A stretch of DNA of 63,574 nucleotides, filler included, from Rozella allomycis CSF55 (lineage: Eukaryota), in NCBI GenBank assembly GCA_000442015.1. It is 9 parts of 9 records of this genome, joined end to end, with 100 filler letters (N's around TTAATTAATTAA, not from the genome) between each part and the next. Parts side by side here need not be neighbours in the genome. Positions count along the whole stretch, not along the records: positions 1 to 28,599 come from KE560772.1; 8 more parts are not named here. The stretch is one strand, 5' to 3'. Made by a program: the position numbers and the translations under genes. This document shows positions 9,682 to 57,405 of the stretch, piece after piece. The notes under the pieces were generated by a model, which was given only the letters and a program-made list of their open reading frames with translations, did no database searches and had not been told where the DNA came from. Within the stretch, counting starts at the first letter, position 1. Every line of letters starts with the position of its first letter.

Positions 9682-9723
9682 TTCAGTATCATTCGATTTC
9701 GAAATTTCCATAAAACAAAATCA

Positions 9724-10029
9724 ATGTTGTATCGACTTATTGTCTTCAGAAACCCCCTAATTTCAATGTTTAATGCTATTCAGAAAAAAAACTTTTCGTT
9801 ACTTACCAATAGACTTTTAAAGCCAGCTCATTCGATAGGCAAAGTGCCATTTCTAGTCAACACCCAAATCCGACTCTTTCAGTGTCGAACATCAGTCAAG
9901 CGTGTTTGCATTCATTGTTATTTGACTAGACGCAAGGGAAGGTTATATAATTACTGTAAAGTGTATCCCAAGCACAAGCAAAAGCAGGGCAAGGGTGTAA
10001 AGGACCGCAGACAAAGGACAGGCTTTTAA
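9724..10029 (+). CDS. MRPL36: Mitochondrial ribosomal protein bL36m
   Basis: Basic presequence followed by [38 protein letters not shown] (L36 zinc ribbon). Confidence 0.9.
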
Positions 10030-10098
10030 ATTATACATAACGAGAAATAAAAACTTCCAGAAACGTGTTTGCTTTATTATGACAATAGCTAAATTTGT

Positions 10099-10508
10099 CT
10101 ATTTGACTTCATCTTCTTCCAGCAGCATATTAGGAATCCCATCTTTGATTGGATAAACATGCCCACAATTTTTACAAACCATTTCACCATCTATTATCTC
10201 TTTTTGCATCAAGATTCCATGCAGCAGCTTCAGTTCATCTTCAGTATAGCTTTCAATCTCCTTGTTCAAGTCGAACGGAATTTCTTCCATGATGTTTAAC
10301 TATAAAAAAATAATAAAGCGAATACTTGATTCATTGCGGCTTTAAGGGCATCAAAATCTAATCTGGGGATCATTCTTTCTATAAACTGTGGATGAAATTC
10401 AACTTCGCGGTCTTCAACGGTCATAACCTTGGCAAAATTCAAAGGAAAATTGTTTGTAGTGCATTTTTTAACATGGCACTGTAAAAGATTGTGTGTTAAA
10501 AGACGCAT
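10099..10508 (-). CDS. TRM112: Multifunctional methyltransferase activator Trm112
   Basis: MRLLTHNLLQCHVKKC...NFPL and CKNCGHVYPIKDGIPNMLL; one short GT-AG intron. Confidence 0.95.
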
Positions 10509-10663
10509 AAAAAAACGAGTGGCTGGGATATTAAGAAACCGGATGAATGGATAAAGAGCTAGTTTATATTGAATGCCAAAGTTTAACGAATCGGGTTTAA
10601 TGCAAGTCAAAAAATGGTAAATGAAATTGAAATTTTCGTATTGGAGAGTGTGACGTAATCGAA

Positions 10664-13600
10664 ATGCCTTTTGATCATCGGAATGAGTGTGCGTTTGAAA
10701 AGGCTGGGTTTATTTCAAGAATCTTTTATATGTGGACGAATGCGTTTGTGAATTATAGTTGGAAGAACAATCTAATGCCTTCTGATTTCCCACCCGTTGA
10801 GTAAGGTTTCATGATGAGATATATTAGTGCGGATATGGAAGCGCATAATTTGTTGGATAGATTTGAAACTGCGTGGACTAAAGAAAAGGCGAAGAGTAAC
10901 CCATCATTGATTAGGGCGGTGGTATGGTTTGTAATGTTTGCTAATTAGTGGAGTGTATTCAAGTGGCGTCATTTGTTAACAGGCTTCTATGGGGTACTTG
11001 AGAGTGTGTTCAAAATATCTGGAGCTGTGTTACTTGGCTTCTTGCTTAAATGGTTAAAGAACAATAATGGTGACATATTGCAAGGTAATGATTGTTGATA
11101 AGTTTGAGCATTAGGATGGTTGATTGTTGGATTTCTTTGTGCGAGTATGTTCCTTTATGGGATTGTGCACCATGTGTTATTTTTTTCATCGTATAGACTT
11201 GGAGTGTTTGTGAGGATAACGTTGTCTGCAGCGATTTATGAAAAGACGTTGAAATTGTCGACATCAACGTCGACTTCTACGGGGAAGATTATTAATATAG
11301 TATCTAATGATGTTCAAGTAGGATATTTATATAGCAAAAATAGGTTTTTGACATGGCGTCTCATTTTGCTCATTTTTTGTATGTAGGGCCGATTGAAGTT
11401 TTAATTTCTTATGGATTTCTTGTGTATTGGATTGGATGGTTAGCGTCATCTGCTGGATTGATTGTTATATTTTTGATGCTACCGTTGCAATGGGGGTTTG
11501 CCAAGAGATTTTCTAAACTGAGAGAGAAAATGGTTACTGCTAGGGATGATCGTGTGAGAATTCTGAGTGATTTATTTCATGGGATAATGATTGTAAAATA
11601 CTATTCATGGGAGGAGCCATTTTTGAAGTATATAAATGAAATAAGAAATAAAGAAACGAGATATTTGTTTAAAGCGTCTTGGATGAAGGCGATGAATGAA
11701 GCGCTGTTTTTTGCATCGCCAGTGATGATTTCGCTTGTTTCGTTTGGGACTGCATATTTAGCTGGAGAACAATTGGAGCCTTCTAGTATTTTTTCATCAT
11801 TGGCATTGTTGAATGTTATTAGATTAACAATGACCAATTTCTTTCCGTTGGCTGTGGAATCTGTGAGTGCGTCGCTGATATCTCTTGAGAGAATAAGAGA
11901 GATTCTGGTATCACCTGAAATAGGCATAGAAAATGCAGAGGAGAGCGATGAAGATTTGATTGTTGAGAATGCTTCATTTTCGTGGGGTGTTAATTCTTCT
12001 TCAAGTGGAGATGACAAGATGATTCCAATGCAAGAACATTCCGTGGCTCTAAGGGACTTGGATTTCAAAATAGGACAAGGCGAACTTTGCATTGTGATTG
12101 GAACATTTGGCAGTGGAAAATCATCATTGTTGTTGTCTATTATGGAAGAATTGAAGAAGATTTCAGGTATTACTAAAAAAGCATTTATAACCAGGGTGTT
12201 TAAAGAAGCCAAGGAGGATTAGATATGCGTCACAGAAGCCCTGGATTCTGTCTGGATCGATTAAAGAAAATATACTATTTGGTCAAACGTATGACGAAGA
12301 AGAGATGAATAGGGTTATAGAAGGATGTGCATTGAAGGAAGATTTGCTTAGATTTGATAATGGATTGGAAACAATGATAGGAGAGCAAGGATGTAATTTA
12401 TCAGGGGGACAAAAGGCGAGAATTACTTTAGCGAGAGCTATTTATAAGAGCAAAGATGTAGATTTAATTCTGCTTGATGATGTGATGAGTGCTGTTGATA
12501 ATAAAGTCGCGAATGTAATTTTTAAAACAATAAAAAGACTTGGCAAGATGTGTGTGTTGGCAACCCATCAATGGCAGTTTGTGGAGAAATCAGATAAAGT
12601 TTTAGTTTTGGATAATTCAAAACAAATATTTTTTGGTGGAATTGAAGAATTTTATAAATGGGATAATTTGATTGTTAAAAATGTGATTGAATATAAAGGA
12701 TCTAGATCTAAACAAGAAGAAAATGAAATTGATAAAGATGAAATAGATTTTAAAGGAGATGAAAATGAGAGAAATGAAATTATTAAAGAAGAAGATAGAA
12801 ATGTTGGATCTGTTTCTGGAAAAACTTATAAATATTTTGCTAAAAATGGAGGTAATCTATTTTTCAATCTATTTTTCAGGTGGCTTATCAGTAGTTCTAT
12901 TTTTAGTTTTTGCATTATCGATTGGACAAGCCTCAATAATAATATCAGATCGATGGTTAGCAATTTGGAGTGAATCTGTAGATCAAGAAAATTCAATGTA
13001 TATTATTGTATATTTTGGATTGTTTTTGATTGTGTTAATATTTTCTATAATTAGATCTGTGACATTTTTTAGATTTTGTTTGAAATCTTCGTGTAAAATA
13101 TTTGAATTGATGCTTGGGAGTGCCATGGGATCTAATTTGAATTTTTATCAATCTAATCCACATGGCAGAATATTGAATAGATTTACCAAAGATCAATCTC
13201 AAGCAGACGAAGAACTTCCAACAACATTCTTTGATGCCATTCAGTGCGTCTTTATTGTTCTTGGTGTAATCATTGTAATTTGCTACGTTAATTATTGGCT
13301 AATCATAACGCTTCCATTCATTTTATTTTCTTTTCTTTACGTTAGAAAAATTTATTTGAAATCTTCAAGAGAAATTAAAAGACTTGAAGCAATTTCACGT
13401 TCTCCAATCTATTCTCATCTTTCAATCACTCTGCAAGGGTTACCCATAATTAGATCTTCAAAAATGGAATCTAATTTTAAAAACACTTTTCTAAATTTTA
13501 TAAATGAAAATTCAAAATGTTATTTCGCTTTTATTTTCACTGCTCGATGGCTTGGCATTAGGTACTTTTAATAGATCTATTCCAATTAGATTAGATTTAC

Positions 13601-14616
13601 TTTCTAGTTTATTCTTTACTGTTTCTGTTATTGTTTGTGTTTTAATTAAAGATAAAATAGATCCTGGCCTAGTTGGCTTAGGCTTGGCTTATGTTATGCA
13701 ATTAATCTCTCTTGTTCAAGTAGAAATATTTCTATTTATTTAAAAGTGGTGCACTCGGCAATTAGCTGAAGTAGAAAATTTAATGACTTGCATTGAACGA
13801 ATGCTAGTTTACACTAAACTGCCCCAAGAGAATTGGACTTCTGAATCAAACATTCAGCCGCCCCCCAATTGGCCACAAAATGGTCAAATTGAATTTAATA
13901 ACATGTCTCTATCTTATCCAGAATCAAAATCACCAGCCTTGTCAAACATTAACTGCATCATAAAATCTAAACAGAAAGTCGGCATCGTGGGAACAACAGG
14001 CGCTGGAAAAAGTTCTTTCGTCACTTCCCTCTTCCGTTTCATAGAATCTACCCCTGAAAATTCAATTTCCATCGATAATATTCCAATCCAGAAAATAGAC
14101 TTGAAAACACTCCGTCAATCTCTCTCAATCATTCCTCAAGAATCATTTCTATTCAAAGGAACAGTCAGACTAAATCTAGATCCATTCAATCTGGAAACTG
14201 ACTCGAATCTATGGAGAGTCTTACAACTCGTCCAGCTAGAAAAACTAATAAAATCATTTCCCAATAAACTAGACCAAGAAATACACGAAAACGGTTCAAA
14301 TTTATCTATCGGCGAACGACAGTTAATCTGCCTCGCTCGCGCTATTCTCAGAAAACCCAAAATTCTTATAATGGACGAAGCAACCGCAAACATCGATTCT
14401 ACAACATCAAATCTAATCCAAAATTGCATTCATCAGGAATTTGCCAATTGCACAGTACTCACTATTGCTCACAGACTCAAGACTGTCATGCATTGCGATC
14501 TCATTTTGGTTCTTGATAAAGGCCACATTGTGGAGTCTGGGTCGCCATCCGCTCTCTTGGAAGCTAACGGTGCTTTTATAAAATTGTGCGATGAATTAAA
14601 TAAATCAATTGATTAA
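10664..14616 (+). CDS. ABCC/MRP-family (MRP4-like) full ABC transporter, multi-exon
   Basis: TMD1-NBD1 (GTFGSGKSS, LSGGQKARITLARA, ILLDD) then TMD2-NBD2 (GTTGAGKSS, NLSIGERQL, MDEATAN, TIAHRL); eight short GT-AG introns. Confidence 0.95.
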
Positions 14617-14734
14617 TTTTGGCAAAGTTAATAGCAGTTTTTGAAATCTTAAGGAATTTGCAACTTTGCATATATTCTTATGGATATTAAGAACTTCCCA
14701 CATTTAATTATGTATTTGAAAATGGTAGAAACAA

Positions 14735-14808
14735 GTTTCCATGGTGTAGTTGGTTATCACATCTGCTTAACACGCAGAAGGCCTCCAGTTCAAGTCTGGA
14801 TGGAAACA
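14735..14808 (+). tRNA. tRNA-Val(AAC)
   Basis: Acceptor stem GTTTCCA/TGGAAAC, D-arm TGGTGTAGTTGGTTATCAC, anticodon arm TCTGC-TTAACAC-GCAGA, T-arm TCCAG-TTCAAGT-CTGGA, followed by a TTTT Pol III terminator. Confidence 0.96.
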
Positions 14809-15146
14809 TTTTGTTCATTTTTACTTTTTTCTTTAAATGGTAATCACACTTTTTTTGTCAATATATTAAAATCACCGTCGAAGATATTATCATTACTTAA
14901 ATTTGCAACATTAATCCATTCCTGAAAAAAGTGTCAACTTTGTTCCATTAATAAGTCACACTTGCCTATCAAATATAAGCAATAAATTATTATCCTGCAA
15001 TCAAAAAACCAGGAGATAAACGCTGCAACCACCGGGTCTATTTGACTCGGTTGCGAAACTGGAGACCCAATTGATGAAACGATTTTTTTCGTCAATAATT
15101 TGATTCGCACACAGAAAAAATGTAATCTTCGTAATATTGTGCACAC

Positions 15147-17289
15147 AAAATGCTTCAAAGATAAAATGTCAAATTGGAATTCCCAACAATACATTTTGCA
15201 TCCTTTGACCGTCTTTTCAAGAGAAAACCTAAATTTAGCGTCTAATTATTATTTTGCATTACCTTCTATTTAATTTAAGGGACGATGGCGGAAGACATGG
15301 TTCACCTTTAATAAACGATTATAGTATCGGATTCTGAACCCGAAACACTTCAAAGACAAATGAGCATACCATATGTCCCAATTTTTAAGACGAATAGTTG
15401 GGTCTGCGGGTTACTCAACCCATGAAAATTTCGATTCTGTGCATCTCAAAATCGTTGTTCCGGACCACCTTACGAAAGCAGTTTTTCAATTTGCTGATGA
15501 TGCAATAAATGCTGTATGTCGCGCGACATGGGCAGGAGGGTTGTGCTAATGTTGGTGTTTGACTATGTTAATCTTGTAAAGGAAACTATTTATAGCTACT
15601 GCAGCTATAAGTAATGACAACACAGTCCTGGATAGTTATGTAGGTTCACATGAAATATTTAAAGCCTTACCATTTTGCTCGAAGGAATTTTGTCATTGGA
15701 GTTAAAATTATTGTAAACGGCAATATCTAAGACTGCTTGAACAACCGTCGTTCAATTTTGAAAATTATTTAAAATGAAAAGCTTTCTGAGTTACTCTCTC
15801 AGTTGAGAGAATTTGGTACCATAGTACATTTAACACACATCGATGACAATGCCAAAGTGTTGCAGAGATTAGACAACATTGAGACGACATTGGCAATAGA
15901 CCAAAAATCAAGCAGTGAGACTCATTTCAAACCATGAACGCCCTTAAAAACCGAGTCGCGACCATCGTAAATGAATTTGATCTACTTAATGAGCAGTAAA
16001 AACGAGGATAATGATGTGCCATCGGTTCATAGAGACAGAAATCGTGTGTCCCTATATTTTAGTTTACATTTGGCTACAGAACATTTGCAAAACTTTAAAC
16101 ACCTTAGGATTGTGTTACCACGAGACTTACAAAATTAGGTTTCCAGAATGAAGCAGCAAACTATGTTTGTAATATACTGCCTTGCACCGTTACGTGACGC
16201 AATAAATATTTGAATAAAGAATTTGGGGTTTGTCGTTTTGACATCCAAGAAACGACCACAGTAAAAATGTTGCATTCAGAGGTAAAACCATTAGCCGCAG
16301 ACATTAATGATAGGCATGTCGTAATAACAACAGCGTCAACAATATGCGCCTGTTTGCTGACTGTGAAAACAATGTCATTGATTATTGAAGCACGAAAATT
16401 ACTTTGCATTGTAAGTTTGCAAATTATTGCTCCATTAATTGCCTTAACACCATGGCATGATTGCAAAAGGGTATCGTGTGCTACACCAAGTGCAATATAG
16501 CAGATTGGTTTGAAATATATCCATTGAAGCAAAAGAGACAAAAAGACAAAATGTTAAAAAACGGTACAAAGTGACGACTGGCATATCAGTTAGGTTGATT
16601 GACAAAGATTCAAGCTTAATCGATAATATGGATAAGTATGGAAAGGTTGGGGACCCTTCAATAACACCAGATGATATGGCTGATTGTTTCATTCCAGACG
16701 ACGTCATTTTCCTGGCACATAATGCACTTCGTAATCTTCGGCATAATCTTTTAAAATAAATGTTTATTAAAAGACTGAACATAGTATTATATTTATAAAT
16801 TTGAATTATTTGCAGTTTATCAAATTGCTATTCCATCTTATTCTTTACAATGAACTTACTAGTTGTGTTTTGTTTTTCCGTTTCCATTTTGTGGGGGGGG
16901 GGGTTTGGATAGCCCATTTTGCATGTTGTCCTTTTCGCGCTTGGAAATAGTATTGTTATGTAGCATCAAAACATACAAACACTATTTCGAATGCCCAGGC
17001 TACTAAGGTGGTCTTGTTACAACCTTATGTTAAACACTTAAGACTTTTTCAAAAATGCTTCAAAGTAAACATGTCGAAATGGAATTCCCAACAATACATT
17101 TTACATTCTTTTACCGTATCGTTTTCAAAGAAAACCTAAATTTAGCGTCTAAGATTATGTTACATCACCTTCTAATTAATTTTAGAGCCTATGGCGGAAG
17201 ACATTATTGAGCTTTAATAACCGATTATAATATCGGACTCGGAAGTCAAAACACTTTAAAAACAAACGAACATGCCATATGTCCCAATT
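15147..17289 (+). repeat. Diverged ~240-bp direct repeat (15147-15383 and 17052-17289) inside the decayed inter-tRNA region
   Basis: Shared AAAATGCTTCAAAG, GGAATTCCCAACAATACATTTT, GAAAACCTAAATTTAGCGTCTAA, ATGGCGGAAGACAT and CCATATGTCCCAATT. Confidence 0.85.
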
Positions 17290-19844
17290 ATCCAAGACGT
17301 CGGCAGTAAAAGCTTAGTTAAAACTTATTTTAATTAATTGCCTCAAAGTCTTAGAGACTAATGATTTAGTTCAGTTTGCTAATAATGAAACATTGCAGTC
17401 AATGATACACGAAAATGCAATGCATGTCTATTTCTGTTGAAATGAGCTTTAATAATTCTTCTAATGCTTTCTTTGATTTTAACATACACATTTAACAGAA
17501 TTTCAAAACCTTGATCTATTTGACGACAACGCCTTTAAGCGCCAAAACATAATTCATATAGATGTTTAAACTATAATAAATCCAGAGACCATCACATGGG
17601 TTGACCCATATGTCGGGGTGATCAAATAGCAACATCGGGACTTCGAAAGCGGTAAAATATATCCAACCTTTGTAACTGGTGAGTTGTGAGAGACATGTTT
17701 GTTAACCTTAAATAATAACGCTGTTCCAATTCTCCCTACAATTTTAGAATCCGAAATTCCAAAATCATGTAGCAATGAAATCATAAACAAAACGACACAG
17801 CAGTTGCCTACAGTAAGAGAAAACAAAACCATACTCTTCACATTTTCGCAAAAGAAGAAATATATTTGTCGCCATAAATAAATAAGACATTGTAGGACTT
17901 CAAACACAGGATGATGTAGTTAGTCACCAGCTTACCAAATCTATGTCCGCTTTTGGTGATGGGTTTGATAATCGCAAATAGCTTGCGTCGAGACTTAAGG
18001 CGTAACCACCAGCGTTACGCCAGACGTCTATAATTTTGGCGAACATGTGTATCAAGTGAATGTACGTATGAGTATTGTTTGCACCAAAGTCATATTTTGT
18101 CCAAATGGACTTTCTGCTCTCATGGAGGTAAACATCTGGTTATTGTTGCACATGTTCTTACTGGCTGTTATCTGTGGTGCTTGCCAAGAACGTGCCCTAT
18201 GTCGATAAACGCAAAAACATATATGATGAATGTGTCGCGCATGGGAATCCATGAATGAACTGGATTGTATAATTTGTCGAGTTCATAGCCGGCACTTTGC
18301 ATAAGTTGAGTTATCGGACTGCTAGTTCATATAATGGGTGTTAACCACTTTACTCGCTGCCCAGGCAAACAAACGCAACCATTGGTCTCAAAAATGTTCA
18401 AGTTTTGCAGGTCACTACACGAATCGCGTTTCGCGAAATGCATCGCCGTCCCAACTTTCGTGTCTGTCAATGCTCATTATTAATGAATTATTCCAATTTT
18501 TAATGAGGACCACGATTTAAATGGCAACGTCGTGATACTCACCAGCCCCATTGTAACCCGATAGTACTAAATTTTTAACTCAGTTTTAATCTATGTGTTA
18601 AGTATGTCGCATGTGGTTCCGCTACAAGTTTGAAAACCGACGACATTCGTAAACATTTGTCACTGTGTTACCTCCTTGAAGTCGTCTGCAGCATGATTTC
18701 CAGGGCTTCAAAAAGTTCAATGCCTTGGATTGTTACACCTGCACCATGCACATTTAACGCAATTAATCACCTCGAATCTTGCCTGTGCCAACATGCATCG
18801 CAAATACCAACTCTCATTTAGGCGGAATAAGTTAAAGAACTTAATTATATTTTCTACTTTTCCAACATGATATATCGTTTTTCCACTAAAGCCTCTTAGA
18901 CGTTTTGAGATGATGCATCCATGATACATTATGGACTTCCACTGTCATTTTAAGACAAATGCAAGATCCAAAAAATATACTACACCTCCAAACATTAACA
19001 GATGTATATTATGTGTTTGTTTTTTTAAAAAATATAGAATGTGAAACTGGGGTTGCCGACAGAGGTCACACGTATCCGTTAAGAAATGTACTATGTTTTG
19101 GTCAAGGCAATTATCGCATTACTCTGTTAATATAACATATTTTCCGAAAACATATATTTCTCGTTTGGCAAATATCACTAATATTTATTTTATGAACGGA
19201 CGTTTAAGCTATAAACATAAAACTGAAGTAGAAAAGGAAAAGGCGCTGGTGATAATCATGAAATTTCAGATTAGGACATGACGGCGACACCTTCACATTA
19301 ACTAGAACACATGTAGATTAATGTACATTGAAGCACTCAACCACAGTTACCTCCACGAAACGTAACACACTATCAGTGAAAAACTAATAATTGAGTACAT
19401 GTGGGGCTATGCGCTTAACCCTTTATAAACGTTTAATGAATATCTATATTGGCATCGATGTAACACGGGAAGTTATATACCCTGCGCTTGAACTTTGTTT
19501 CAATGTCGTCACATGGTTACAATTAAAAATTGAATTGCCGATGTTGATTTACATAACTACGAAAGTGGGATTGTTGTGAAATATCAAAGTTCTTTTGGCT
19601 TCTAGTTTCTGTCTTTTTCATTTGAAGCAAGCCTTGTAAAATATATTTTTTATGAGTTTTGTAATATTTTGAGGGACAATCCCCGAAATAGTTGTAAAAT
19701 TCGTTGACCCTGAACACAAATATGACTTTGCGCCATATTTTAATAAGAAATCTTTCTATTTTGAATTTTTTCGTTTATAGCAACAGCCAGAGCTCGAACT
19801 GCCTTATCCAAATACAATTTCTCTCAAGAAAACGACAAATATAT

Positions 19845-19918
19845 GTTTCCATGGTGTAGTTGGTTATCACATCTGCTTAACACGCAGAAGGCCTCCAGTT
19901 CAAGTCTGGATGGAAACA
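19845..19918 (+). tRNA. tRNA-Val(AAC), identical second copy
   Basis: Sequence identical to 14735-14808, again followed by TTTT. Confidence 0.96.
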
Positions 19919-20087
19919 TTTTAAGACCACATGATTCCTTTTTCCTTAAAGTTTACGTTTCATTTTATAACAGTAATGGTTTAAAAATTTGAGAAAGATT
20001 ATAACAGTAATGGTTAAAAGTAAAAATTTGAGAAAAATTAGTTAATCGATCCATTTTCAGTTTTAGGAAAATTCAGCATTAATTTTC

Positions 20088-21717
20088 ATGAGCGATGACC
20101 ATGTAGTTCCCGTTAATGAAAACGTTTTACCATTAAAAAACGAGGTTAAATTACAAGCCGAAACTATACCCGAAAGAAAATCGAGTAAATCTGACAAGAA
20201 ATCCCTTTACAATCCATGGAAGGTTTTCCTTAATGACTTGGATCAACTTGATTACAGCAGTTCACAAGCTTTGAAAAGAGAAAGAGTGTATAACTTTCTT
20301 TTGATACCTAACCAACTTGAAAAAGTATCTTTGTTGCAGGCTTTATAGAAGGTTATGTGTTTTGGCTATTTCATATGCATGGATGCTTTTCTATATATGT
20401 TCACTATATTTCCCATTCGATTAATATTAGGACTATATGAATTAATTTTAAAGAAGTACATAGATTTAATAACACACATAGGAAATTGAGCATTGCAAGA
20501 AGATGCGATTTTCTTAAAGGTCTAATTATTTTTTGTGCCGTTTTATTGCTTCAAGAGATCAATTCTTCTATTCTATATCATTCAATTAGGGGGCAATCAG
20601 TGGTTAAACTTTATGTCATATTCAATGTATTAGAAGTAAGCACACTATGTCATGTTTAAATGATTTGTGATAAATTATGTTGTTCCTTCGGCCAGGATAT
20701 TCTGGATTCCTATTTGTCGAGCTTTTTGGATTTGCAAGATACAAAAATGGAAGAGCATCAGAAGTTAAGGCCTTTTACTCATTTCGTCTTGAGTGTAATT
20801 TACGTGTTTGTTCACGCGGTGGTATTTTTCTATCAATCCGTTTGCCTAAACGTAGCAATTAATTCGTATCATAATGCGTTGTTGACTCTTTTAATATCCA
20901 ATCAGTTTGTGGAAATAAAAGGAGCTGTGTTCAAAAGATTCGAAAAAGAAAATCTATTTCAGATGACGTGTAGTGGTACTTGACTTATTTTAGTTTATAA
21001 CAAGATATTGTTGAAAGAGTTCAACTCTCATTCTATTTGATTATAATCGGGCTAAGAAATATGATTGAAATGGGTGATAGTTTGAACAAATGGGACTACT
21101 TTTTCAATACTTTAGGTTTTCAGCTCTTGGTGGTTTTTGTCTGTGAAATATGTGTTGATTGGTTAAAGCATGCCTTTATTTGCAAATTCAATCTTATAAG
21201 GCCCATAATATATGGAAAATATCGCGATGTTTTGTCCAATGATTTGACAAAAGTGGACAAGCCTGTTGATAATTCGGCATTTGTTGCCCGTAGGATCGGA
21301 TTCGCATCAATTCCAGCTACTGCATTTGTAATTTAGGGTTAAATCTTTCAATTTTAGATCATCAGAGTAGCCATACAGCTTGGAAAAATGTTTGGGCTCA
21401 ATTCTCGAGAAATTGTTACTTATGGCCTTATACTTTTTCTTTGGTAAGACCTTAATTTATAATGTATGAAGCTTGTTATGTGTAAAACTATTACTCTCGC
21501 ATCTAATTTTACGTTGGGCAAACAATAATGTGCAGAAATATGAGAATCCAGGGCCCATAGTATCATTATATGCATCTTAAAATAGGAATTTTCATTTCCC
21601 CATGTTAAAGTCGGGCATCAGCTTGGAAAAGATTTTGATAATGCAAAAATTCAAGTTCCGGTACATACTCTTGAGAATATTGATAGATACACCTTAGTAA
21701 AATCCAGAATCCCGTAA
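20088..21717 (+). CDS. TAPT1: TAPT1/Emp65 (DUF747) ER membrane protein, multi-exon
   Basis: IRGQSVVKLYVIFNVLE, DKLCCSFGQD, LNVAINSYHNALLTLLISNQFVEIKGAVFKRFEKENLFQ, VDWLKHAFICKFN and terminal IDRYTLVKSRIP. Confidence 0.93.
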
Positions 21718-21819
21718 ATTCATTTCAATTGATTGTAAAATAAATTACTCTTGAACAATGATATGCCATATTTATTTTGAATGATATGTATTGGTTTAAA
21801 TGAATTTATACATTCAATT

Positions 21820-22689
21820 TCAAATAATGAACCAATCTTTACAAGAATTGCTTAACCCGTAATGATTTTGAACAGATTCCCTTACGAATTCGAGGGACCA
21901 GGGAATTCTTAAATGAAGGTTTCCTCTAACAGGCTTATTAAGAATTAAAGTTAAATTTTTGATGAAGTATGGTATTTCCCTATCGGTCACTTCTATTCCC
22001 AGATGAAAAAGCAAAGAAATGGTATAATGCGACAAATAGCTATGCATTTCACAGATGTGGTAAAAGTCATGATCTAACTTATTCTTATACATGAACTTTC
22101 TATATGTCTGTAGATCTAAAATTACCAAAGCAGAGTCCGATTCACATTCTATCCCAATGTTCACTAATTTTGCGATTACCCTTAACAATAAAGTAGTATA
22201 TTGGAACAATGCATGTGATATGTCGGTTGGCAGGATATCGAAACGATGGTTTTCTGGAACTTTTAAATTGAACAATTTGAAGTAGAACTTGCTAGGCTTT
22301 GTGATAAAGGTTGAAAGACGCTTTAGATTTTTAGAAACAACATCAAAATATATATTCATAACATCTGAATTCCTAAGTTCTAATTGTTTTTTAACCGAGC
22401 GCCCAGGTAACGGAGCTCTGAATCTGACTCTTTGAGCGATATTGAAATTATTCTCCTTCAAATTATTAACACATTCAATAAGATTATTCCTTTTAATGGT
22501 TTCATCTTTCACTAGCTTTTGGAAAAGATCTCTGCGAATAAGCAACTGATAGACTTGGACCAAGTTATGATTTTTTTGCACCACTTTACCTTTAATCCTA
22601 TTATGGTGTTTAAAATACGCGTACATTTCCTTGACACATGTAGAACAAATCATAAAATTTAATTCCTTACTACAATACTCGCATTCCAT
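21820..22689 (-). CDS. Hypothetical protein, possibly an Atg14/Vps38-like PI3K complex subunit
   Basis: N-terminal CEYC...CSTC pair followed by coiled coil and a C-terminal DWFII; in-frame 27-nt intron at ~22598-22624. Family call is tentative. Confidence 0.5.
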   Translation of the reverse strand: MECEYCSKELNFMICSTCVKEMYAYFKHHNRIKGKVVQKNHNLVQVYQLLIRRDLFQKLVKDETIKRNNLIECVNNLKENNFNIAQRVRFRAPLPGRSVKKQLELRNSDVMNIYFDVVSKNLKRLSTFITKPSKFYFKLFNLKVPENHRFDILPTDISHALFQYTTLLLRVIAKLVNIGIECESDSALVILDLQTYRKFMYKNKLDHDFYHICEMHSYLSHYTISLLFHLGIEVTDREIPYFIKNLTLILNKPVRGNLHLRIPWSLEFVRESVQNHYGLSNSCKDWFII

Positions 22690-22725
22690 AATCTGATTTG
22701 GCTTAGCTGAACAGGAGCTTAAATC

Positions 22726-23773
22726 ATGATGCAACAACAGAAATACTCCTTTAACTTTCTCGCAGATAAATTGGATAATTTTCCATCAGAAAAATATGAT
22801 AAATTGATATATCCCTTTTATCATAACGATATACTGATTGGTGCCGTCCGTGATCAGACCTGGCGTATAATAGCGTCGAATGCTACAAAAGACTTGTTAA
22901 CAGTTTTCACATTTAAGGAAAACAAAATTACATATGTCGGCCTAAATTTAAGCGAAGACCTGCGAGCATTAATTCACTTTTGCAAAGAAAAACAATTGTT
23001 TAGTGTACTCGATAAATGGCGAAATGAAGAATATATTATTTATGGACAAAGTAAATTTTGTTATTTCTACGTTAAAGAATGCCTATCTCATAACGAAGAC
23101 AATAATAATTACACCAAATGTTTGGTTAATGTAGGCACGGTGGAAAGATCTGCTGTTGGCTTATTTGGCTTTAAAAGTTATGGAGTACATTTGAATGCCT
23201 TCTTTTACTCATCGGATGGAGAATGTTTCATGTGGATAGGCCAACGTTCCCATACAAAGGACTTTTATCCTAATCACTACGACCAAATGGTATTATATGT
23301 AATAGGTAAACAAAAGGTTGCTGGAGGCCTTTGCGTTCCTTTGACGCCTTACCAGTGTTTGGTAAAGGAATGCAAGGAAGAAGCAAATTTGGACGTTTGT
23401 TCCATTGGCTCTGACTTGAAAGAAGTTGGTACAATAAGCTATATAAACAGTATTGAGGAAGGCATATACCCTGAAACCCAGTACATTTTCGATCTCGAAA
23501 TTGGTGATTCATTTGAACCACAAAATACAGACGGTGAGGTTTCAGCATTCCATTGTATGCCAATTAGAAAAGTAATCTTTTAAATTTAATATATTAATGG
23601 TTATTGATGAAGTTATTTCTGGAAAGTTCAAACCTAACTGCGCTGCTGTGATAATAGACTTTTGCCTTAGACATGGATACCTCAAAGCGCGAGAAATTCA
23701 AAACTCCGAAAGTATTCTAAAGCATATCTATTGCTTGAATTCACCATTAGACTTAATAAACCGCTTAAAATAA
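22726..23773 (+). CDS. Nudix hydrolase of the YJR142W/DUF4743 (thiamine-pyrophosphate-related) type, multi-exon
   Basis: KWRNEEY, ERSAVGLFGFKSYGVHLN, MWIGQRS...DQMVAGG, Nudix box KECKEEANL, NTDGEV and FKPNCAAVIIDFCLRHG. Confidence 0.9.
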
Positions 23774-23798
23774 ATTGTGGCTTACTTCTTGAAAGTTA

Positions 23799-24826
23799 AT
23801 GTCCCAAAATTCAACAACGGGTATTCCAGAAAATGCACCTTCTCGTATATTTTTTCTTTATTTTTTATTAGATTGTCCTGGTCCGTCAAGTGAAAAGGCC
23901 GGATATTCTTCTTCTTGCTCGGGATGTCCGAATCAAAAAGTATGTGCCACAGCACCAAAAGGACCAGATCCTGACATACCTTTGATTAATGAGAGAATGG
24001 AAAGTGTTAAAAGAAAAATATTGATTTTATCTGGCAAAGGAGGTGTTGGGAAAAGTACTGTAACATGTCAACTCGCGCATGCACTGTCCGAGAAAAAGGA
24101 TTTGGAGGTATAGATATGAATGTACTAATATAAGATTGCTGTTTTGGACATTGATGTATGCGGACCATCTGTCCCACAAATGTTTGGCATCAACAATGAA
24201 AATGTACACGCCTCCAACTTTGGATGGACCCCAATTTATGTGAAAGATAATTTAGCTGTTATGTCAGTTGGGCTTCTTTTAGAAGATAAAGATTCCGCCA
24301 TTATTTGGAGGGGGCAAAAAAAGAATGGCATGATCAAGCAGTTTTTGAAAGATGTTGAATGGGGTAACGTCGATATCATGCTTGTTGATACTCCACCAGG
24401 AACATCAGATGAACACATTTCAATTATCCAGCTATTAAAAGAGTGCGGTGTAGACGGGGCTGTTATCGTTACCACACCACAAGAAATATCCCTGCAAGAT
24501 GTTAGAAAAGAAGTAGACTTTTGTCATAAAGTGGGGATACGTGTATTAGGAGTTGTTGAAAACATGGGTCAATTTTCCTGTCCAAAGTGCAAAGTAAACA
24601 CGTTAAATTTTTGTTTTAGAATACATCATATATATTTCCACCATCTTCTGGAGGGGCTCGAAAAATGGCAGAAGAATTAAATATCCCTTTTTTAGAATCT
24701 ATTCCATTGGATCCACTAATAGGAAGGTCTAGTGACTTTGGAGAATCTTTGAAGGAATCTCAAAATTCAATTGCCAATTTGATCTATTCTAAGATGGTTG
24801 ATAATGTTTTATCTTTAATAAACTGA
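23799..24826 (+). CDS. NBP35: Cytosolic Fe-S cluster assembly factor Nbp35/NUBP1
   Basis: N-terminal [21 protein letters not shown]-loop [29 protein letters not shown] and ENM..FSCPKC; three GT-AG introns. Confidence 0.96.
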
Positions 24827-24828
24827 TT

Positions 24829-25218
24829 TTGTTAGTATTTGGAATATTTAAAAATAGAATGCAACTAAATATATTTGTTGTCACTAAAGTGGCGGGTTCA
24901 AGTATGAACAAAAACATCGAAATCGAAGGCCAATCGATCAACGATAGAATGCATGATGCGGCATATAATATTGTCATGGAAATGATCAGCAGTGTCGCAC
25001 ACGTGAAAAATCAAAAGTCGGCATTTACTATCAAACTTAGTTCGTCTAAGTGCAACTCTAAAAAGCTAAAATTTAGACCAAATTCAAAAAACAAGAAAGA
25101 TAGATCTAGCGCCCTGGAATTTCTTGAGCTAATTGAAAGGTCTGAAAGAGAACTATTACAACAAGAATTACAAAGAGATTTCGGCAAGCGACGAAAGCAT
25201 CAAAAAGTGAAACAATGA
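24829..25218 (+). CDS. Hypothetical protein
   Basis: 129-aa ORF filling the gap between genes; no recognisable motif, start codon uncertain. Confidence 0.4.
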   Translation: MLVFGIFKNRMQLNIFVVTKVAGSSMNKNIEIEGQSINDRMHDAAYNIVMEMISSVAHVKNQKSAFTIKLSSSKCNSKKLKFRPNSKNKKDRSSALEFLELIERSERELLQQELQRDFGKRRKHQKVKQ

Positions 25219-25672
25219 AATAAATATTAGTCCAGAATATTAAACTTCTTTGATGCCTTAAAGTAGGCGTCTTCAAAGTAGAATGTATCAATACCTACAT
25301 TTTAAAAGTTAAAACATTCAAAGTCGGTTTGGTATCGTTCTTTGATTAACACATTTGACAACACGATGTCTTGAATGGTCATTGTCAAAAAAGGTAGCAA
25401 AAGTTGGTGGGCGTCACATGGCTGTACTGCAATGCCAAGGACACCCTTGAGTTTATCCGAAGCAAGCCTCGAATAAACTCCCAGGAGACAAATTAATTTG
25501 AAAGTTGATGACTCCAGTGGAGTCACTTTAGCTTTCAAACTAAAGAGAACAGATACTACACTTGATCTAAGCCAGAGGCTTGAGATTGGTGACCTTAGTG
25601 AAATTTACAAAACTTAAAGGTAAATTGTTTTGAAAATTCATCCTTGTGGGTTTCAACTGTTTAATGTAAAAA

Positions 25673-26830
25673 TTATTTATTTAAAGTGCTAGCATGTTTT
25701 TTTCTTAATCTTTTCGTGTCTCCAACTCCAAGCCTAATTTTTATTATGAAAATGTTTTACATTGGAAGACCCTTATTAAGACCCTCTAAAAGGACGCAGG
25801 CTTTGCAAACTTTATTACTAGAAATATAGCCACATCGTTCGCAGATCATTTGAGTAGGAGTTTTAACATTCTCCTTTATCTCAAAGGCTTCCCCGGAATA
25901 AATTATATCTGTAACAATAAAAAAATCAGATTACCAAGTATTATAGAAGGCCTTATTGCTTCGAGTTCTTTAAGATATGTTCTGGCGAACCCTCTGTATG
26001 CCATTGGTGAATAAATGCATTCAGTAGAAAAATAATCAAGTTTTTTGAAATAAGCATACATAACTATTTCCTTTTCATATGTGTATTTGAATGGTTTTGA
26101 TCTAGGTACGGTTACTCCACCGTTTTCGTCGCATGTTGATATAGCAGTGCATCGCCCTAATCTGGATATATCTCCTCGTAAAACTATTTCTCATAATAAA
26201 TGTTTTTACTGTTCATTAACACAGTTTCCGCAACATCGTCCGCATTGTGCCCAGTAACGATATGATCAACGTTTAATAGGGCAGCCCCTCTGTCTAATGC
26301 CTGCCTTCTAAAGACACCACAAAAAGTACCTATTTATTTACAAAACTCATCACATTACAGTTATTTTTAAGCCCGACTTGCTTCACGATTTCATCCATTG
26401 TCCAACCATATAATTCTTCGTACGAAACAATTTTTAATGGTAAATCATATTGTAGCTGGTTTCTTTTGACAGTCTAAAATATTGTATGGCTATTTTATAC
26501 CTCTAATGAATCATCTCTGTATCCAGTGATTCCTTCATCAACTGACAATAGAAACAGGTCTAGGCCGTAATCATATCGCTCATTTAAAAGCTTTAAAACA
26601 TAAGCTAATACAGTAGAGTCTAATCTATCTCATTAATTCTGAATACCTTTGCCACCAGACGCACCAATGGCAATTTTGTCTCCGCGCTTAAATAGATTTG
26701 TTTGAACAATTGTTTGATGGATCTCAGTTTCAAAAACAAAAAAGAAGCATTCTTTGCAAATAGCTTGTGCAGTTTTAGGTCGCTTTATAATGGCTCTATG
26801 CTCACCACAAAGTTCACAAAGTTTTGCCAT
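25673..26830 (-). CDS. NCS6: Cytoplasmic tRNA 2-thiolation protein 1 (Ncs6/CTU1), multi-exon
   Basis: CELC...[65 protein letters not shown] and C-terminal CERCG...CKAC; six GT-AG introns. Confidence 0.96.
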
Positions 26831-26864
26831 TGTGGCTTAGGACAAAGTAGAACAGAAAATAGAT

Positions 26865-28370
26865 TTATTCGATTGAAATAAGAGAATTAATAGTTTTTCG
26901 GCGATTATTTAAACTTTTGTCATCTTTTTGGGATTGAGGTGAAGTGAATAGAAATGAGGAAGCAAATTCAGGTTCATCGTCAACAACTTTTCTATCCGCA
27001 GATTCGGCAGCGGCAGGTTTTTCTGCAATTTTCGTTTCTTTTAATACTTCTAATTCCTTTTGGGGTGAGCTTTTTCCTGGATTTGCAGAAGAGTTTCCAT
27101 TTTCAACAGTAGATCTGATATGAGCTATAAGGTCATTAATGGCACCCTCACTTACAACTTTCTGGATAACTTTTGTAATCAATTCCTCAACATTTTCACT
27201 GCCACTTTGCTTTATTAGATCTTTCATTTGATTAATTTCTGGAAGTGGAGACGTCTTAGTGTTTGACAATAAAGACTCGATTTCATTTACCGCCTTAATT
27301 GAAAAGAATTGGCCTTCATTAAGGCAATCGACTTCAATAATATTAGATGAGACTGCTTCCAAAATAAACAATTGCCAGGAAGAAAATGGGCTGGATTTTA
27401 GGAAACGATGCAAATGAGGAAGAGCGCCCATCTGAGAAGACGACACTGGAAGTTTTGTAGTTTTCAGTAATTCCCTCGCAAAATCTGAAATTAAAGACAC
27501 TAATGATTCATCTTTCTTAAATGGAGACAAAGAAATATAGCAAATCGTTCCTTGGTGATCCAGAAAAATCCTTTTAAGACAGCAGGCATGATAAAAGAAT
27601 CTGATCAATTTTTTGTAACCAAATTTCATAATTTCTTCTCTTACATTTCCTGGGAGAGCATTCGCGACGTTAACAATCGTGTCAGAGCCTTTTCCTGCCA
27701 AGTACTTTTCTAACCAGGATATTACAGTGTCCATCATACACGGAAAATCAGTTATGGTAGGAATATCGTCCAAATCTGAAGCCTTTACCTTTTTCTTTTT
27801 GGAGCTCGGTTCATTGGGATCTTCTAACGCGCGTTTTTGATTTAAACTTGTATTTGGCGGTGGTAAATTTTGCAGTTTGTCAACAACGTCACTGGGATAC
27901 TCAATATCGCCAGGGGGAGCTGGTCTAAAAGCCCAATCTTTCTTTTCTGAATCATATCGGCCAACCAAAACACGAGCAGCAAACCCTCCAAAAATGAAAT
28001 CTTTGAAACTTTTGAATTTGCAAAGATCTATTCTTTGGCTCATTTTACTGCCAATATCTTTTAGCCAATTATCTTCGGTTTTCCTCAGCTGGACAATCAA
28101 GGGTAGAAACGGTTGAGCATCTTCTAAATCTATATCGCCAGGAAGTGCAAAGATCCATTCTCCATTATGGTAAATAGCGTCTGTGTATCCCCTGGCCATA
28201 GCGTCCATTAAAAATAGAGACTGCTTCTTGTAAACATTGGATGGTATTTCCTTTGGGTATAACGTGTTAAATTTTTGAAGTAGAATACTTAATGTCGGCT
28301 TTTCAGATATAGGAAAGGTGTTCAACACATCCAAGACCTTTAGGAAAAGTTGTGCTTTTGTTCCAACCAT
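26865..28370 (-). CDS. Hypothetical intronless protein with putative tandem OST-HTH/LOTUS-like repeats
   Basis: Long ORF (likely ATG at 28370) with four similar segments ending YKKQSLFLMDA, FKSFKDFIFGG, FGYKKLIRFF and FSSWQLFILEA. Domain call is inference. Confidence 0.65.
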   Translation of the reverse strand: MVGTKAQLFLKVLDVLNTFPISEKPTLSILLQKFNTLYPKEIPSNVYKKQSLFLMDAMARGYTDAIYHNGEWIFALPGDIDLEDAQPFLPLIVQLRKTEDNWLKDIGSKMSQRIDLCKFKSFKDFIFGGFAARVLVGRYDSEKKDWAFRPAPPGDIEYPSDVVDKLQNLPPPNTSLNQKRALEDPNEPSSKKKKVKASDLDDIPTITDFPCMMDTVISWLEKYLAGKGSDTIVNVANALPGNVREEIMKFGYKKLIRFFYHACCLKRIFLDHQGTICYISLSPFKKDESLVSLISDFARELLKTTKLPVSSSQMGALPHLHRFLKSSPFSSWQLFILEAVSSNIIEVDCLNEGQFFSIKAVNEIESLLSNTKTSPLPEINQMKDLIKQSGSENVEELITKVIQKVVSEGAINDLIAHIRSTVENGNSSANPGKSSPQKELEVLKETKIAEKPAAAESADRKVVDDEPEFASSFLFTSPQSQKDDKSLNNRRKTINSLISIE

Positions 28371-28403
28371 GTGGCTTGACCAAAAGCAAGAGACAGATGT
28401 ATA

Positions 28404-28535
28404 TTTTTTTAAATATATCAACATTTTTTATTGATTAAAAATAGTACAAAATTCGTTTTCCACGAAGTGAAATCTTCCGTGTCGAGGAGAATTGTACAAG
28501 TAAAGTGCCTGTGAATTAGGGTTTCTGGGAAAAAT
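28404..28535 (-). repeat. 3' end of a poly(A)-tailed LINE-derived repeat (other copies ~51105-51228 and 51339-51432)
   Basis: TTCCCAGAAAC...CACGGAAGATTTCA...CTTCGTGGAAAACGAATTT is shared by all three copies; the ...ATGTTGATATATTTAAAAAAA tail is shared with the ~51105-51228 copy. Confidence 0.75.
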
Positions 28536-28699
28536 ATTATATATAGACCAAAGTCTTTATCAACTCAAGAATTTAGAAGCATCATCAATCAATTAAGTTN
28601 NNNNNNNNNNNNNNNNNNNNNNNNNNNNNNNNNNNNNNNNNNNTTAATTAATTAANNNNNNNNNNNNNNNNNNNNNNNNNNNNNNNNNNNNNNNNNNNN

Positions 28700-31426: not shown

Positions 31427-34400
31427 TCAACGTGACGTGATAGATTGCCTCTCAATCACAGAATGCTGATTATTATCTCTGGCGACTCTCCAATAATAGT
31501 CAACGTAATCAGATTGACCGAGCAGCCTCACAAACTCTTCATCGTGGGTGATAACAATGAGCTGAAAATTCGCCTGCTGCCGCTTAGTTTTGATAATGCT
31601 AGATTATTGGCGTGTGTGTAGAGTACTCTGAGAGTGATCTGGCTAGAGACTCGATGTTTGCTTGATCCAGGTTGGTTGTTGGCTCGTCGAGTGCGAGGAT
31701 GCCGCAATTGGCGCCGAATGATTCAGCTAGTGCTAGGCGGATTATTATGGAGGCTAGGACTCTTTGGCCAGCGGATGAACGGCCGCGCATGTCTAGTTCG
31801 GTTGTGCCTTTGAGCATGACTACTCTGTAATTGTAGGATCTATTTCCTTTATCTAGAGTGAGAATGATATTTACCTGTTGAAGATTGTAGAAAGTTGCTT
31901 TACCTTTGCATTCTTTTTCAGATCTAATTTCCACAGTGTCAATATCAGTCCCTTTGTGATATAATACTTTTAATTACCTAATTTTATGATAGAATGTTTC
32001 ATTTACCTTGATAAGTGTTTGTCCATAATTCACAAATGATTTTATTGATTTNCTATAATACTTTTGTTTAATTTACCTTGATAAGTGTTTGTCCATAGTT
32101 CACAAATGATTTTATTAATTTCTTTCATTTTGACTGAATGATATTTCATGATTGCTGAATCCAAAGCCTTTCCATATTTATCTAAATCACTTTGAGATAA
32201 TTCCAAAGACTAGAAAAAAACTATTTAGAATTCATTACAGTGACTTTGATTAATTGTTCAGAATATTTTTCTCTAACATTTTTATAGTCAGATTTTAGTT
32301 CCAGACTATAAGAATTCTTTTGTATTTCTAATTGTTTCAATTCACCAAAAATGACAGACTTTTGAGAAATTAGATTTGTAATTTCAGATTCTAATTTGTT
32401 CTTTTTATTTAGATCAAATTTAAATTTTGAAAATTCTAATTTTAGTTTATCAATTTCTATTTTTAGATCATTTAATCTTTTGATTTGATTTCTCAATCTT
32501 AAATTATCTAAAATTGTTCTCTCAGCTGAATCAACTTTTCTAAATTTCTGAATTGAAAATTGAATTTTTTGATTTATTTCTTCAATTTTGTCTAAATTTT
32601 GTTTTATTTTTGAATTTATTTCTTCAACTTTTTTTTCAATCTCTGAAATTTCTAAATCTATTTTTGAATTTTGAAATCTATTTTTAGATTAGTAAATTTC
32701 ATACTTTTCACAATCAAATTTTAGTTCTCTTAAAGAATTTAAATGTTTGGAATAGAAATTGATTTGATTATTTATTTCTTGTTGTTTTAAAGAATAATCA
32801 CTAGTTATTTCATTCTTCTTTTGTTTCAACTTTAATAAATTTGGTTCAAATTCAATTTGTTTCTGTAAAAGATCGTTTAATTCATTTTGTATTAAATTTA
32901 TTTGAATTGAAAGATTTGAATTTTCTAATTTTAGATTATTTTTCTTTTCTAGTTGAACTTTGATTGAATTTAGACTGGATTGATCCTTGTTTATTAAAGA
33001 TTCAAGATTTGAAATTAATTTAATCTTGTCCCTCAATTCTAAATTTAGTTTATTTATTTTTTTGTTATTTTCATCAAAAGAGTTTTTAGATTTGTTGAAA
33101 GATTCATTTAATTCTTCTAATGACCAGGGTATCCCTTGAGAAAGATCTAAATTTAGATTTTGAATTTCTTTTTCCAAATTTTTGATTTCATTAAATCTTT
33201 TAAAAATTAATTCGCAATCTTTAACAAGATTAGAAATTGTTTCCAATTCTTTTTTCTTTTCTAAACATTTTAGATCTATTTCTGAAATTTCATCTTTTAG
33301 ATTGAAAATTTCTTTTTTAATTTTTTCTAAATCTAATAAATCTTTTTTGATTAAAGAAAATAGATCTTTAATTTTTGGAATTAAATGAGAATTGAGCTAA
33401 AAATAGATTAATAAATTTCAAATACCTTTAATTTGTTTAATAAATTATTTTGAGATTCAAATTCTCTTTGTTTTAAAACTAAATTTGATGGTAAATTTAA
33501 AATGAAATTCTTTAATTTATTTTCAAAACAATTTTCTTCTTTTAGATTATTAAACTTTCTTGAACATAAAGGACAATCCTTTTTCAATTCAAATTCTTTA
33601 ATAAATTTTTGAAAAGAAATTCTCATTGAATCTCCATTCGTTAATTCATTTCTCAATTCTTCTACATTTTCTTCTACATTTCTTAAAACATTTTTAAATT
33701 CTTTATCAAAGTTTAAAACTATTTCATCTGAACTCAAATCATCCAAATCAATTGTTAATGTTTTTGAAATATCCAAAATGTTTTTATTCTCAAATTCATT
33801 TATAATATTTTCAATTTTATTTTTACATTTTCTAAATTCTTCTCTTCTATTTTTTAAATTTTCTTCAATTAAATCTTTCGTTGTAATTTTTCCAGAAATT
33901 TCATAATTTTTTTCTTTTAATTCGTTTTCTATTTTTAGAAATTCTTTTTCAATTTTTCTTTTGTTTTCTCTACTTTCAAATTCTAAATTTTCATAAACTG
34001 GAAATGTTCCAAACTTTAAAATAAATTCACTCTTTTCTGTCAATGTTTGAATCTCCAAATGTTTCTCTTGTCGCTCCCTCTTCTTCACTTCCAACTTTGC
34101 TACCTTTTCTGTCTTTTTACTAATCAAATTCAAATTAAACGACGTTTGCTTCATCTTCTCTTCAATCTCTTTATTTTCAAACTCAATCTTTCTTATCTCC
34201 TTTTCAATCTCCACTGTTTCAAATCCCTGCTTAACCATTTCCAATTCACTCTGCTTTTCTTTCATTCTCTTCCCAATCTCTACATATTCTACCTCATCAA
34301 CTTTAATCAAATTCATCTCTCTCTCATTTTCATTCATNGTTTTCAAACTCTATCTTTCTTATCTCCTTTTCAATCTCCACTGTTTCAAACCCCTGCTTAA

Positions 34401-35958: not shown

Positions 35959-36552
35959 TTTTGGTGGCAAAGTCGCTTTTTGGTTGAATTAAGATTACTA
36001 CCTTTTAGAAAATAATTCATTCAAATTCTTTATTTTCTTAGTTGGTTAATGGGTTATTGTTAAATCTTGTTATATTGAATTGATTTGCAATGCACATATC
36101 ACATTGTTTTATAATCCATCATAATTAAACGTTGCCAGTTGCAAGTCTAATAAGGTTTGCCCTTTAATTGAACTCAGGGGTGTGGCCTTTGAAGAGTAAC
36201 AAGCAAATATTACCATCCAAAAAATGAAGGTAGATTAGGTGCTAACTTTGCAAGTTTACCTTTGGTGATACTTGAATGAAAAATAGACTTTAAAGCTTAC
36301 TTTATTCAGGCTGTACTTATCGTGTTCCCTGTGCATTAATTGACCTAAGCTTAATTAATAGGCAACCTTGAGTCTGCCGAGTCGGCCAATAAGAAGAAAA
36401 GATTTTGAATTAAATTTGATTTATAGAAAGTTAGGTTTAAGGTTTTTGAAGNNNNNNNNNNNNNNNNNNNNNNNNNNNNNNNNNNNNNNNNNNNNTTAAT
36501 TAATTAANNNNNNNNNNNNNNNNNNNNNNNNNNNNNNNNNNNNNNNNNNNNG

Positions 36553-45500: not shown

Positions 45501-45528
45501 AAGGCCAATGAAAGCCCGAAGGNGCTAG
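36553..45528 (-). mobile_element. Non-LTR retrotransposon (N-terminal extension, APE endonuclease, reverse transcriptase, RNase H), assembled as a mosaic of several copies
   Basis: APE motifs SQNV, FFQETW, SIYVP, GGDWN, RLDYFL and TDH in 42229..45549. RT motifs KAPG, RPITLLE, GFR, DVAKAFDTV, GVPQGDPISP and SADD, plus RNase H (WCDGS, RPELFAI, SDSQ, HVKGHSGIELNELADQLA), in 36553..39229. Repeated fragments lie between. Confidence 0.95.
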
Positions 45529-55375: not shown

Positions 55376-55536
55376 NNNNNNNNNNNNNNNNNNNNNNNNN
55401 NNNNNNNNNNNNNNNNNNNTTAATTAATTAANNNNNNNNNNNNNNNNNNNNNNNNNNNNNNNNNNNNNNNNNNNNAGATCATCTGCTAAGCCACTCCCAT
55501 CATGTATTTGATATTCACATTAAAAAGCAAAGAAAT

Positions 55537-57278: not shown

Positions 57279-57405
57279 NNNNNNNNNNNNNNNNNNNNNN
57301 NNNNNNNNNNNNNNNNNNNNNNTTAATTAATTAANNNNNNNNNNNNNNNNNNNNNNNNNNNNNNNNNNNNNNNNNNNNACAAAATTCACATATACAGCAG
57401 CTCTG

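Follow-up and report, generated by a model that had tools for sequence, protein, structure and literature searches.

The stretch of DNA analysed here, hereafter the window, comprises 63,574 nucleotides (nt) from Rozella allomycis CSF55 (GenBank assembly GCA_000442015.1) and is made up of nine or more contigs, separated from each other by one and the same artificial linker (44 N, TTAATTAATTAA, 44 N) at 28600-28699, 36452-36551, 50409-50508, 51919-52018, 55376-55475, 57279-57378, 58575-58674, and 60998-61097. The first contig (1-28599) is free of N, and scattered single N bases occur in the contigs beyond it. This first contig carries on its forward strand a gene of the TAPT1/EMP65 family (Pfam PF05346, DUF747), whose coding sequence is interrupted at 20636-20662 by a 27-nt insert that starts like an ordinary spliceosomal intron, with GTAAG, and ends in TG in place of AG. 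Membership of the family is supported by three exons that score 60.8-151.1 bits against PF05346, for which the gathering cut-off is 25. The top named homolog is a DUF747-domain-containing protein of R. allomycis CSF55, fungal homologs include Emp65p, and 20663-20974, once translated, shows 99% identity to the NCBI protein P0001 (EPZ35710.1, RKP21467.1).

We modelled the gene as eight exons and seven introns (20088-21720), which upon splicing yield a protein of 479 amino acids (aa) with one terminal stop, the TAA at 21718-20, and with no in-frame TAA, TAG, or TGA in the spliced exons. Apart from the insert, which constitutes intron 3 in this model, all introns are of the ordinary GT-AG kind and measure 24-30 nt. 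Exon 1 (20088-20324) starts from an ATG and fits the N-terminus of the public model P0001, and intron 1 (20325-20348, 24 nt) puts the homolog-conserved block KVMCFGYFICMDAF... of exon 2 back in frame. Exon 2 (20349-20455) aligns with the homologs (LFGYF.CLDSFL...) and is followed by intron 2 (20456-20481, 26 nt) and by exon 3 (20482-20635), which ends in ...NVLE and matches PF05346 positions 4-50 (E value 2.2e-16, from 20483-20635); neither of these two exons is present in the public model. Downstream of the insert, exon 4 (20663-20975) starts with ICDKLCCSFGQD and matches PF05346 positions 51-148 (E value 7.6e-44, from 20663-20974), intron 4 (20976-21004, 29 nt) is also found in the public model, and exon 5 (21005-21327) covers PF05346 positions 150-257 (E value 8.6e-30). 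The gene continues with intron 5 (21328-21357, 30 nt), exon 6 (21358-21443), and intron 6 (21444-21471, 28 nt), whose AG at 21471 is demanded by both the public model and the homologs, so that a 21-nt form of it ending in AATG (21444-21464) was rejected. Exon 7 (21472-21559) and intron 7 (21560-21585, 26 nt) precede exon 8 (21586-21720), which contains the TAA stop and encodes a C-terminus, ...DRYTLVKSRIP, common to the homologs.

The public model P0001 has in this region a single 371-nt GT-AG intron (20325-20695), which joins NQLEK, ending at 20324, to DILDS, starting at 20696. It is consequently devoid of 98 conserved residues, namely those of exons 2 and 3 and the 11 encoded at the start of exon 4. 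The models of three fungal homologs (P0029, P0036, and P0058) look truncated at the same place (...AFEK|IFDRL).

The insert, GTAAGCACACTATGTCATGTTTAAATG, is flanked by ...TTA GAA upstream and by ATT TGT GAT AAA downstream, runs from GTAAG to AAATG with its TG at 20661-62, and corresponds to a phase 0 intron with a length that is a multiple of three. An earlier note on this DNA had described a GTAAG donor and an in-frame TAA, which we read at 20636 and at 20657-20659, respectively. The donor GTAAGC (20636-41) fits the GTRAGT-like consensus of U2-type introns and, as expected of such an intron, removal of the insert restores an uninterrupted conserved frame; the 3' AG, also characteristic of U2-type introns, is replaced by TG. 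Across 20636-20700 there are just two AG dinucleotides, one within the GTAAG itself (20639-40) and the other at 20694-95, with none between 20641 and 20693. The ends of the insert cannot be slid along the sequence (20635 is A and 20662 is G; 20636 is G and 20663 is A) and, therefore, GT...TG is the sole pair of ends that gives an mRNA encoding ...NVLE|ICDKL.... Two A-rich branch candidates, CACTAT and TTTAAA, are present in the insert; the set of introns predicted in the window, which is contaminated by false calls (see below), yielded no branch consensus. A metatranscriptome run labelled as the same species (word share 0.00) and mapped at a threshold of 90% likeness gave five records on 8590-28589, all of them chance pieces of 18-47 nt that contained no joints. 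Excision as an element similar to internal eliminated sequences, with TA repeats at its ends, was rejected, as the possible TA...TA pair would produce a 20-nt out-of-frame deletion.

Protein conservation locates the junction at a precise codon boundary. Position 50 of PF05346 closes exon 3 and position 51 opens exon 4, such that the insert falls between consecutive positions of the profile, and an alignment with 11 homologs is gapless at NVLE|ICDKLCCSFG, with complete identity to a Paraphysoderma protein over NVLEICDKLCCSFG. The motif N.L[ED][IVL].[DE][RK][LIMF]..[SA][FLIA]G occurs without interruption in 106 of the 119 non-Rozella homologs; five others have an NVME variant, with M replacing L, and five of the remaining eight keep the downstream 11-residue block. 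None of the homologs compared has an extra residue or a nine-residue insert at the junction. The claim of the earlier note that removing the 27 nt restores the family motif exactly is thus supported both by the Pfam positions and by the alignment with TAPT1 orthologs that it had proposed. It had also anticipated that the next AG (~20695) would cost the protein ICDKLCCSFGQ, and an acceptor at 20695, which lies in conserved coding sequence 33 nt beyond the TG, indeed defines an in-frame 60-nt intron that removes those 11 residues, which no fewer than 111 of the 119 homologs retain. Since a normal TAPT1 protein needs ligation of exon 3 to exon 4 at the TG, this TG would be the sole productive acceptor and not a minor alternative.

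The position of the insert is occupied by introns in many other TAPT1 genes. We scanned metagenome contigs with the exon 4 protein and obtained 75 TAPT1 loci, some of which surely represent the same species twice, and scored at each whether N.L[ED] and [IV].D[RK]L were contiguous or split by an intron with GT or GC at its start and AG or TG at its end. An intron in phase 0 at the exact codon boundary was found in 44 loci, 19 were contiguous without any intron at the site, and 12 were uninformative. Hence, 44 of the 63 informative loci share site and phase with the Rozella insert (43 GT-AG and one GC-AG introns), representing 37 distinct sequences and nine flanking-motif groups. These environmental introns (loci L004-L072) have the same position and phase (N.L[ED] / [IV].D[RK]L) as the Rozella insert but differ from it in length (30-91 nt versus 27 nt) and in their ends, as all 44 terminate in AG although the search also permitted TG. 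Six loci (L028, L045, L052, L053, L055, and L056) possess GT-AG introns of only 30-31 nt (GTAC...ACATAG or GTAC...TTTTAG) at the Rozella site, so that mini-introns there are not unique to Rozella. Given that the site is shared by 44 of 63 informative loci, the Rozella insert is most likely orthologous to this widespread intron, and the comparison strongly indicates a shared ancestral intron that was shortened to 27 nt and whose acceptor is now TG.

The same AATG end is found at two other sites of this contig (23572-23599 and 9461-9488), in line with the earlier note's mention of two other cases, so that all three cases, in a TAPT1, a NUDIX-like, and a ZMYND10-like gene, end in AATG. The second TG-ending mini-intron (23572-23599, forward strand, 28 nt, GTAATC...TTAATG) lies in the NUDIX-like gene and is supported by homolog spacing. 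The public model of this gene, P0121, uses instead a 55-nt GT-AG intron (23572-23626) that leaves the protein nine residues short. An exhaustive HMMER search provided 150 homologs, 67 of which carry both anchor motifs; the spacing between these anchors is 19 residues, the value of the TG model, in 55 of the 67 and 17-21 residues in 65, whereas the 10 residues of the public AG model occur in none of them. The third candidate (9461-9488, forward strand, 28 nt, GTAATT...TAATAATG) is supported by the domain architecture of the ZMYND10-like gene. Its removal joins an upstream frame of 86 codons to an exon encoding a MYND finger (9490-9678; zf-MYND, PF01753, E value 6.8e-12), which has no start of its own, and P0272, the public model of 290 aa, is terminated by a TAA within the donor and lacks the MYND finger. 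These two parts can be joined solely by an AG-less intron, with the TG placed at 28 nt, a modal length, and the other frame-compatible end (31 nt) being TT. The Atlas clusters nearest to the ZMYND10-like protein contain ZMYND10 proteins of 376-452 aa, and zf-MYND is present in 85-97% of the members of feature ranks 2 and 3 and of structure row 2; as the top cluster has no common family, we take this as a lead and not as a test. A fourth AATG candidate (28422-28447, reverse strand, 26 nt) is uncertain: it comes from the joining of open reading frames (ORFs) alone, no Pfam or homolog support was found for it, and its downstream ORF may start at an ATG of its own. With the TAPT1 intron included, this 28.6-kb contig would hold no fewer than two, and probably three, TG-ending introns, and the public gene models at all three sites are wrong.

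Except for its last but one base, the insert fits well among the ordinary introns of this genome. The paths of a Viterbi gene finder through the window include 122 GTA...AG introns, a set that has false calls (e.g., 21290-21316, inside a conserved TAPT1 block) and that we used for lengths and rough base frequencies. Lengths in this set peak at 26 and 27 nt, and 111 introns, all of them selected for a GTA donor, fall within 22-33 nt. Introns of 60 and 58 nt also found there are AG 'rescues' of the TAPT1 and NUDIX-like cases; the gene finder favoured such long rescues, or a stop followed by a restart. The insert shares with the ordinary Rozella GT-AG mini-introns the GTA donor, the 27-nt mode, internal stops, and an interior rich in A/T that includes a motif similar to TTTAA, but has T at -2 where they have A. 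Among the 111 introns, A is found at -3 in 32 and at -4 in 41; the AA that precedes the TG in three of three cases, expected at ~0.1 per case from this contaminated set, is unlikely by chance. Scans in which ORFs were joined across AG-less junctions produced hundreds of spurious junctions from antisense and chance ORFs and were too noisy, and Pfam scans (covering the initial 150 of the 625 ORFs with 40 aa or more, and 16 large ORFs) had few junctions within profiles. Taken with the protein conservation across the junction and the orthologous introns, we consider it probable that 20636-20662 is a real U2-type spliceosomal mini-intron with TG as its sole productive acceptor.

Among known systems, U12-type minor introns (AT-AC or GT-AG) are a class that also permits non-AG ends. 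Their 5' box is [AG]TATCCTT. The 5' end of the insert, GTAAGCAC (GTAAGC), does not correspond to this box and the insert lacks a branch box similar to TCCTTAAC, such that we rejected this assignment. Well-documented TG acceptors are known only from humans, where they serve exclusively as alternatives next to an AG. According to Szafranski et al. 2007 (PMC2374985), human U2-type TG 3' splice sites are always alternatives to an AG at most 28 nt away, never the sole site, and favour a pyrimidine at -3; GNAS and TSPYL2 are human TG-acceptor genes named in PMC4176328. The Rozella insert, with its TG placed by homology, has in common with the human sites the GT donor, the TG in place of AG, the U2-like character of the intron, and the retention of the last G. 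In contrast, the human sites have been verified on RNA, whereas the Rozella site is known from sequence, and the Rozella intron is just 27 nt long. Rozella resembles the human TG acceptors in the dinucleotide but differs in its behaviour, and would represent a new variant if real. We found no mention of TG acceptors in Rozella in the literature searched, which comprised titles and abstracts of the papers listed and passages of PMC8476143 and PMC6349667.

Several observations weigh against the interpretation of the insert as a TG-ending intron. Intron 6 of the same gene contains two TGs, in an AATG at 21 nt and in a TATG at 25 nt, that are bypassed in favour of the AG at 28 nt; TG is accordingly not generally preferred, and evidently goes unused where an AG is located a few bases further on or where splicing at the TG would make the intron too short. 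Nor do the positions before the canonical AGs of the window show a visible depletion of TG, with 4-10 observed per position versus ~6 expected from base composition in the contaminated set. The T at 20661 is taken from the assembly as deposited, and the cleavage of RNA at the TG, its efficiency, and the rule of acceptor choice are all inferred from the DNA. The comparison with humans (PMC2374985) adds three further points: the nearest AG lies 33 nt beyond the Rozella TG and not within 28 nt, position -3 is A and not a pyrimidine in three of three AATG cases, and human AG>TG mutations do not lead to splicing at the TG but activate neighbouring AGs.

The behaviour of these human mutations is also an argument for a damaged gene, in which an ancestral AG changed to TG and the intron is now either retained, with its premature TAA, or spliced to the AG at 20695, leaving a young pseudogene or a crippled protein without ICDKLCCSFGQ. 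The existence of an in-frame AG 33 nt downstream, the fact that Rozella is a reduced parasite, and the non-essential nature of EMP65 in yeast are all compatible with such damage. Nevertheless, the remainder of the gene is intact, with 479 codons, six good introns, and every conserved block, and the family motif is still perfectly encoded by the 11 codons that would be lost with the AG at 20695. In addition, a 60-nt intron would be an outlier in this genome and the AATG end recurs in two further intact conserved genes of the same contig, so that we regard a damaged gene as unlikely. The recurrence of AATG bears likewise on the possibility of a base error or a strain-private variant, the true base at 20661 being A and the intron having an ordinary ...AAAG end. 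The base at 20661 is known from the deposited assembly, and the scattered N bases in the other contigs of the window attest that this assembly is imperfect, but the 28,599-nt contig with the insert is free of them. Moreover, the acceptor is placed by homology in two genes and is AATG in both, a third gene without any AG option likewise has AATG at the modal length, and the same A>T change at -2 of three introns is not expected from random errors. The identical odd model of EPZ35710.1 and RKP21467.1, which skips this region, is weak evidence that their underlying DNA agrees, as one assembly may have given rise to both records. An error or private variant at this base is, in our view, quite improbable.

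Two further explanations keep the 27 nt in the mRNA. In a gene split by a stop and a restart, translation would end at the TAA and resume at the ATG that directly follows it in frame (TAAATG, 20657-59 and 20660-62) to make two polypeptides, and the insert of the NUDIX-like gene also ends in an in-frame ATG. However, the terminal ATG of the ZMYND10-like case is out of frame with its downstream exon, no homolog has an added residue at the junction, and neither the GTAAG exactly at the homology break, nor the modal length, nor the orthologous intron in 44 of 63 informative loci would be explained; we give this scenario very little credence. A variant genetic code, in which TAA would specify an amino acid and the insert, whose length is divisible by three, would encode nine added residues, is hardly conceivable, as TAA terminates TAPT1 itself at 21718-20, the spliced exons contain no in-frame stops, and no homolog possesses such a nine-residue insert.

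If 20636-20662 is indeed a spliced TG-ending mini-intron, it would descend from the intron that many fungi have at the same codon boundary, its 3' end having changed to TG in an AAATG context. Recognition would proceed via the GTAAG donor and the A/T-rich branch region, and the first step of splicing would be normal. With introns limited to ~22-33 nt, the choice of the acceptor in the second step would be confined to a very narrow range, where an AG, if present, would be taken and where, with no AG within reach, AAUG would be accepted, U replacing A at -2. The first and last G of the intron pair with each other in spliceosome structures, where the branch adenosine is contacted by the A at -2. 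As a speculation, a substitute contact might come from U at -2 or, if the U is bulged out, from the A at -3. A broader version of this idea, to which we give a slightly better than even chance, is that R. allomycis regularly uses AAUG as the sole productive 3' site in a few percent of its ~27-nt introns. This would imply a re-tuned acceptor recognition in the second step, with the choice made mostly by distance from the donor and the branch region.

The 3' AG is one of the most rigid signals of eukaryotic gene expression, and Rozella would, if this regular use is true, be the first organism with non-AG acceptors as a regular, solely productive class. A TG without a usable AG nearby would also offer a natural system for studying acceptor recognition in the second step, including whether a ruler-like mechanism could override the AG rule. 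Rozella is, in addition, a key taxon for phylogenomic work on fungi and microsporidia, and gene prediction with a strict requirement for AG would systematically damage its proteome; under regular AAUG use, a considerable fraction of the proteins in the Rozella reference set would be mis-annotated.

Several other features of the window deserve mention. Two tRNA-Val(AAC) genes are encoded on the forward strand of the first contig (14735-14808 and 19844-19919), the second ~170 nt before the start codon of TAPT1. At 31952-32061 on the reverse strand (context 31930-32090), three predicted GTA...AG units, 55, 29, and 26 nt in length, directly follow one another in the same orientation, and AAACACTTATCAAG followed by GTAAAT is found twice in this context, ~60 nt apart, which looks like a tandem duplication of an exon end together with its mini-intron. 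Large ORFs on the reverse strand of 36554-45522 encode RVT_1 (E value 3.3e-28), RNase H (E value 5.2e-16), and endonuclease/exonuclease/phosphatase (E value 1.2e-08) domains and belong to a retrotransposon without long terminal repeats, similar to long interspersed nuclear elements. Identical strings of 28-34 nt occur ~2 kb apart in this region (40365-40392 and 42336-42363; 40261-40294 and 42232-42265). Finally, a gene similar to those of 2-oxoacid dehydrogenase E2 subunits (Biotin_lipoyl, E3_binding, and 2-oxoacid_dh domains) contains, at 52252-54191 on the forward strand, 300-nt direct repeats with 96-99% identity, spaced 487 and 505 nt. These repeats represent either a recent tandem duplication of a domain with its intron or an assembly artefact, and an identical 27-nt intron is found at 52473-52499 and 52960-52986.

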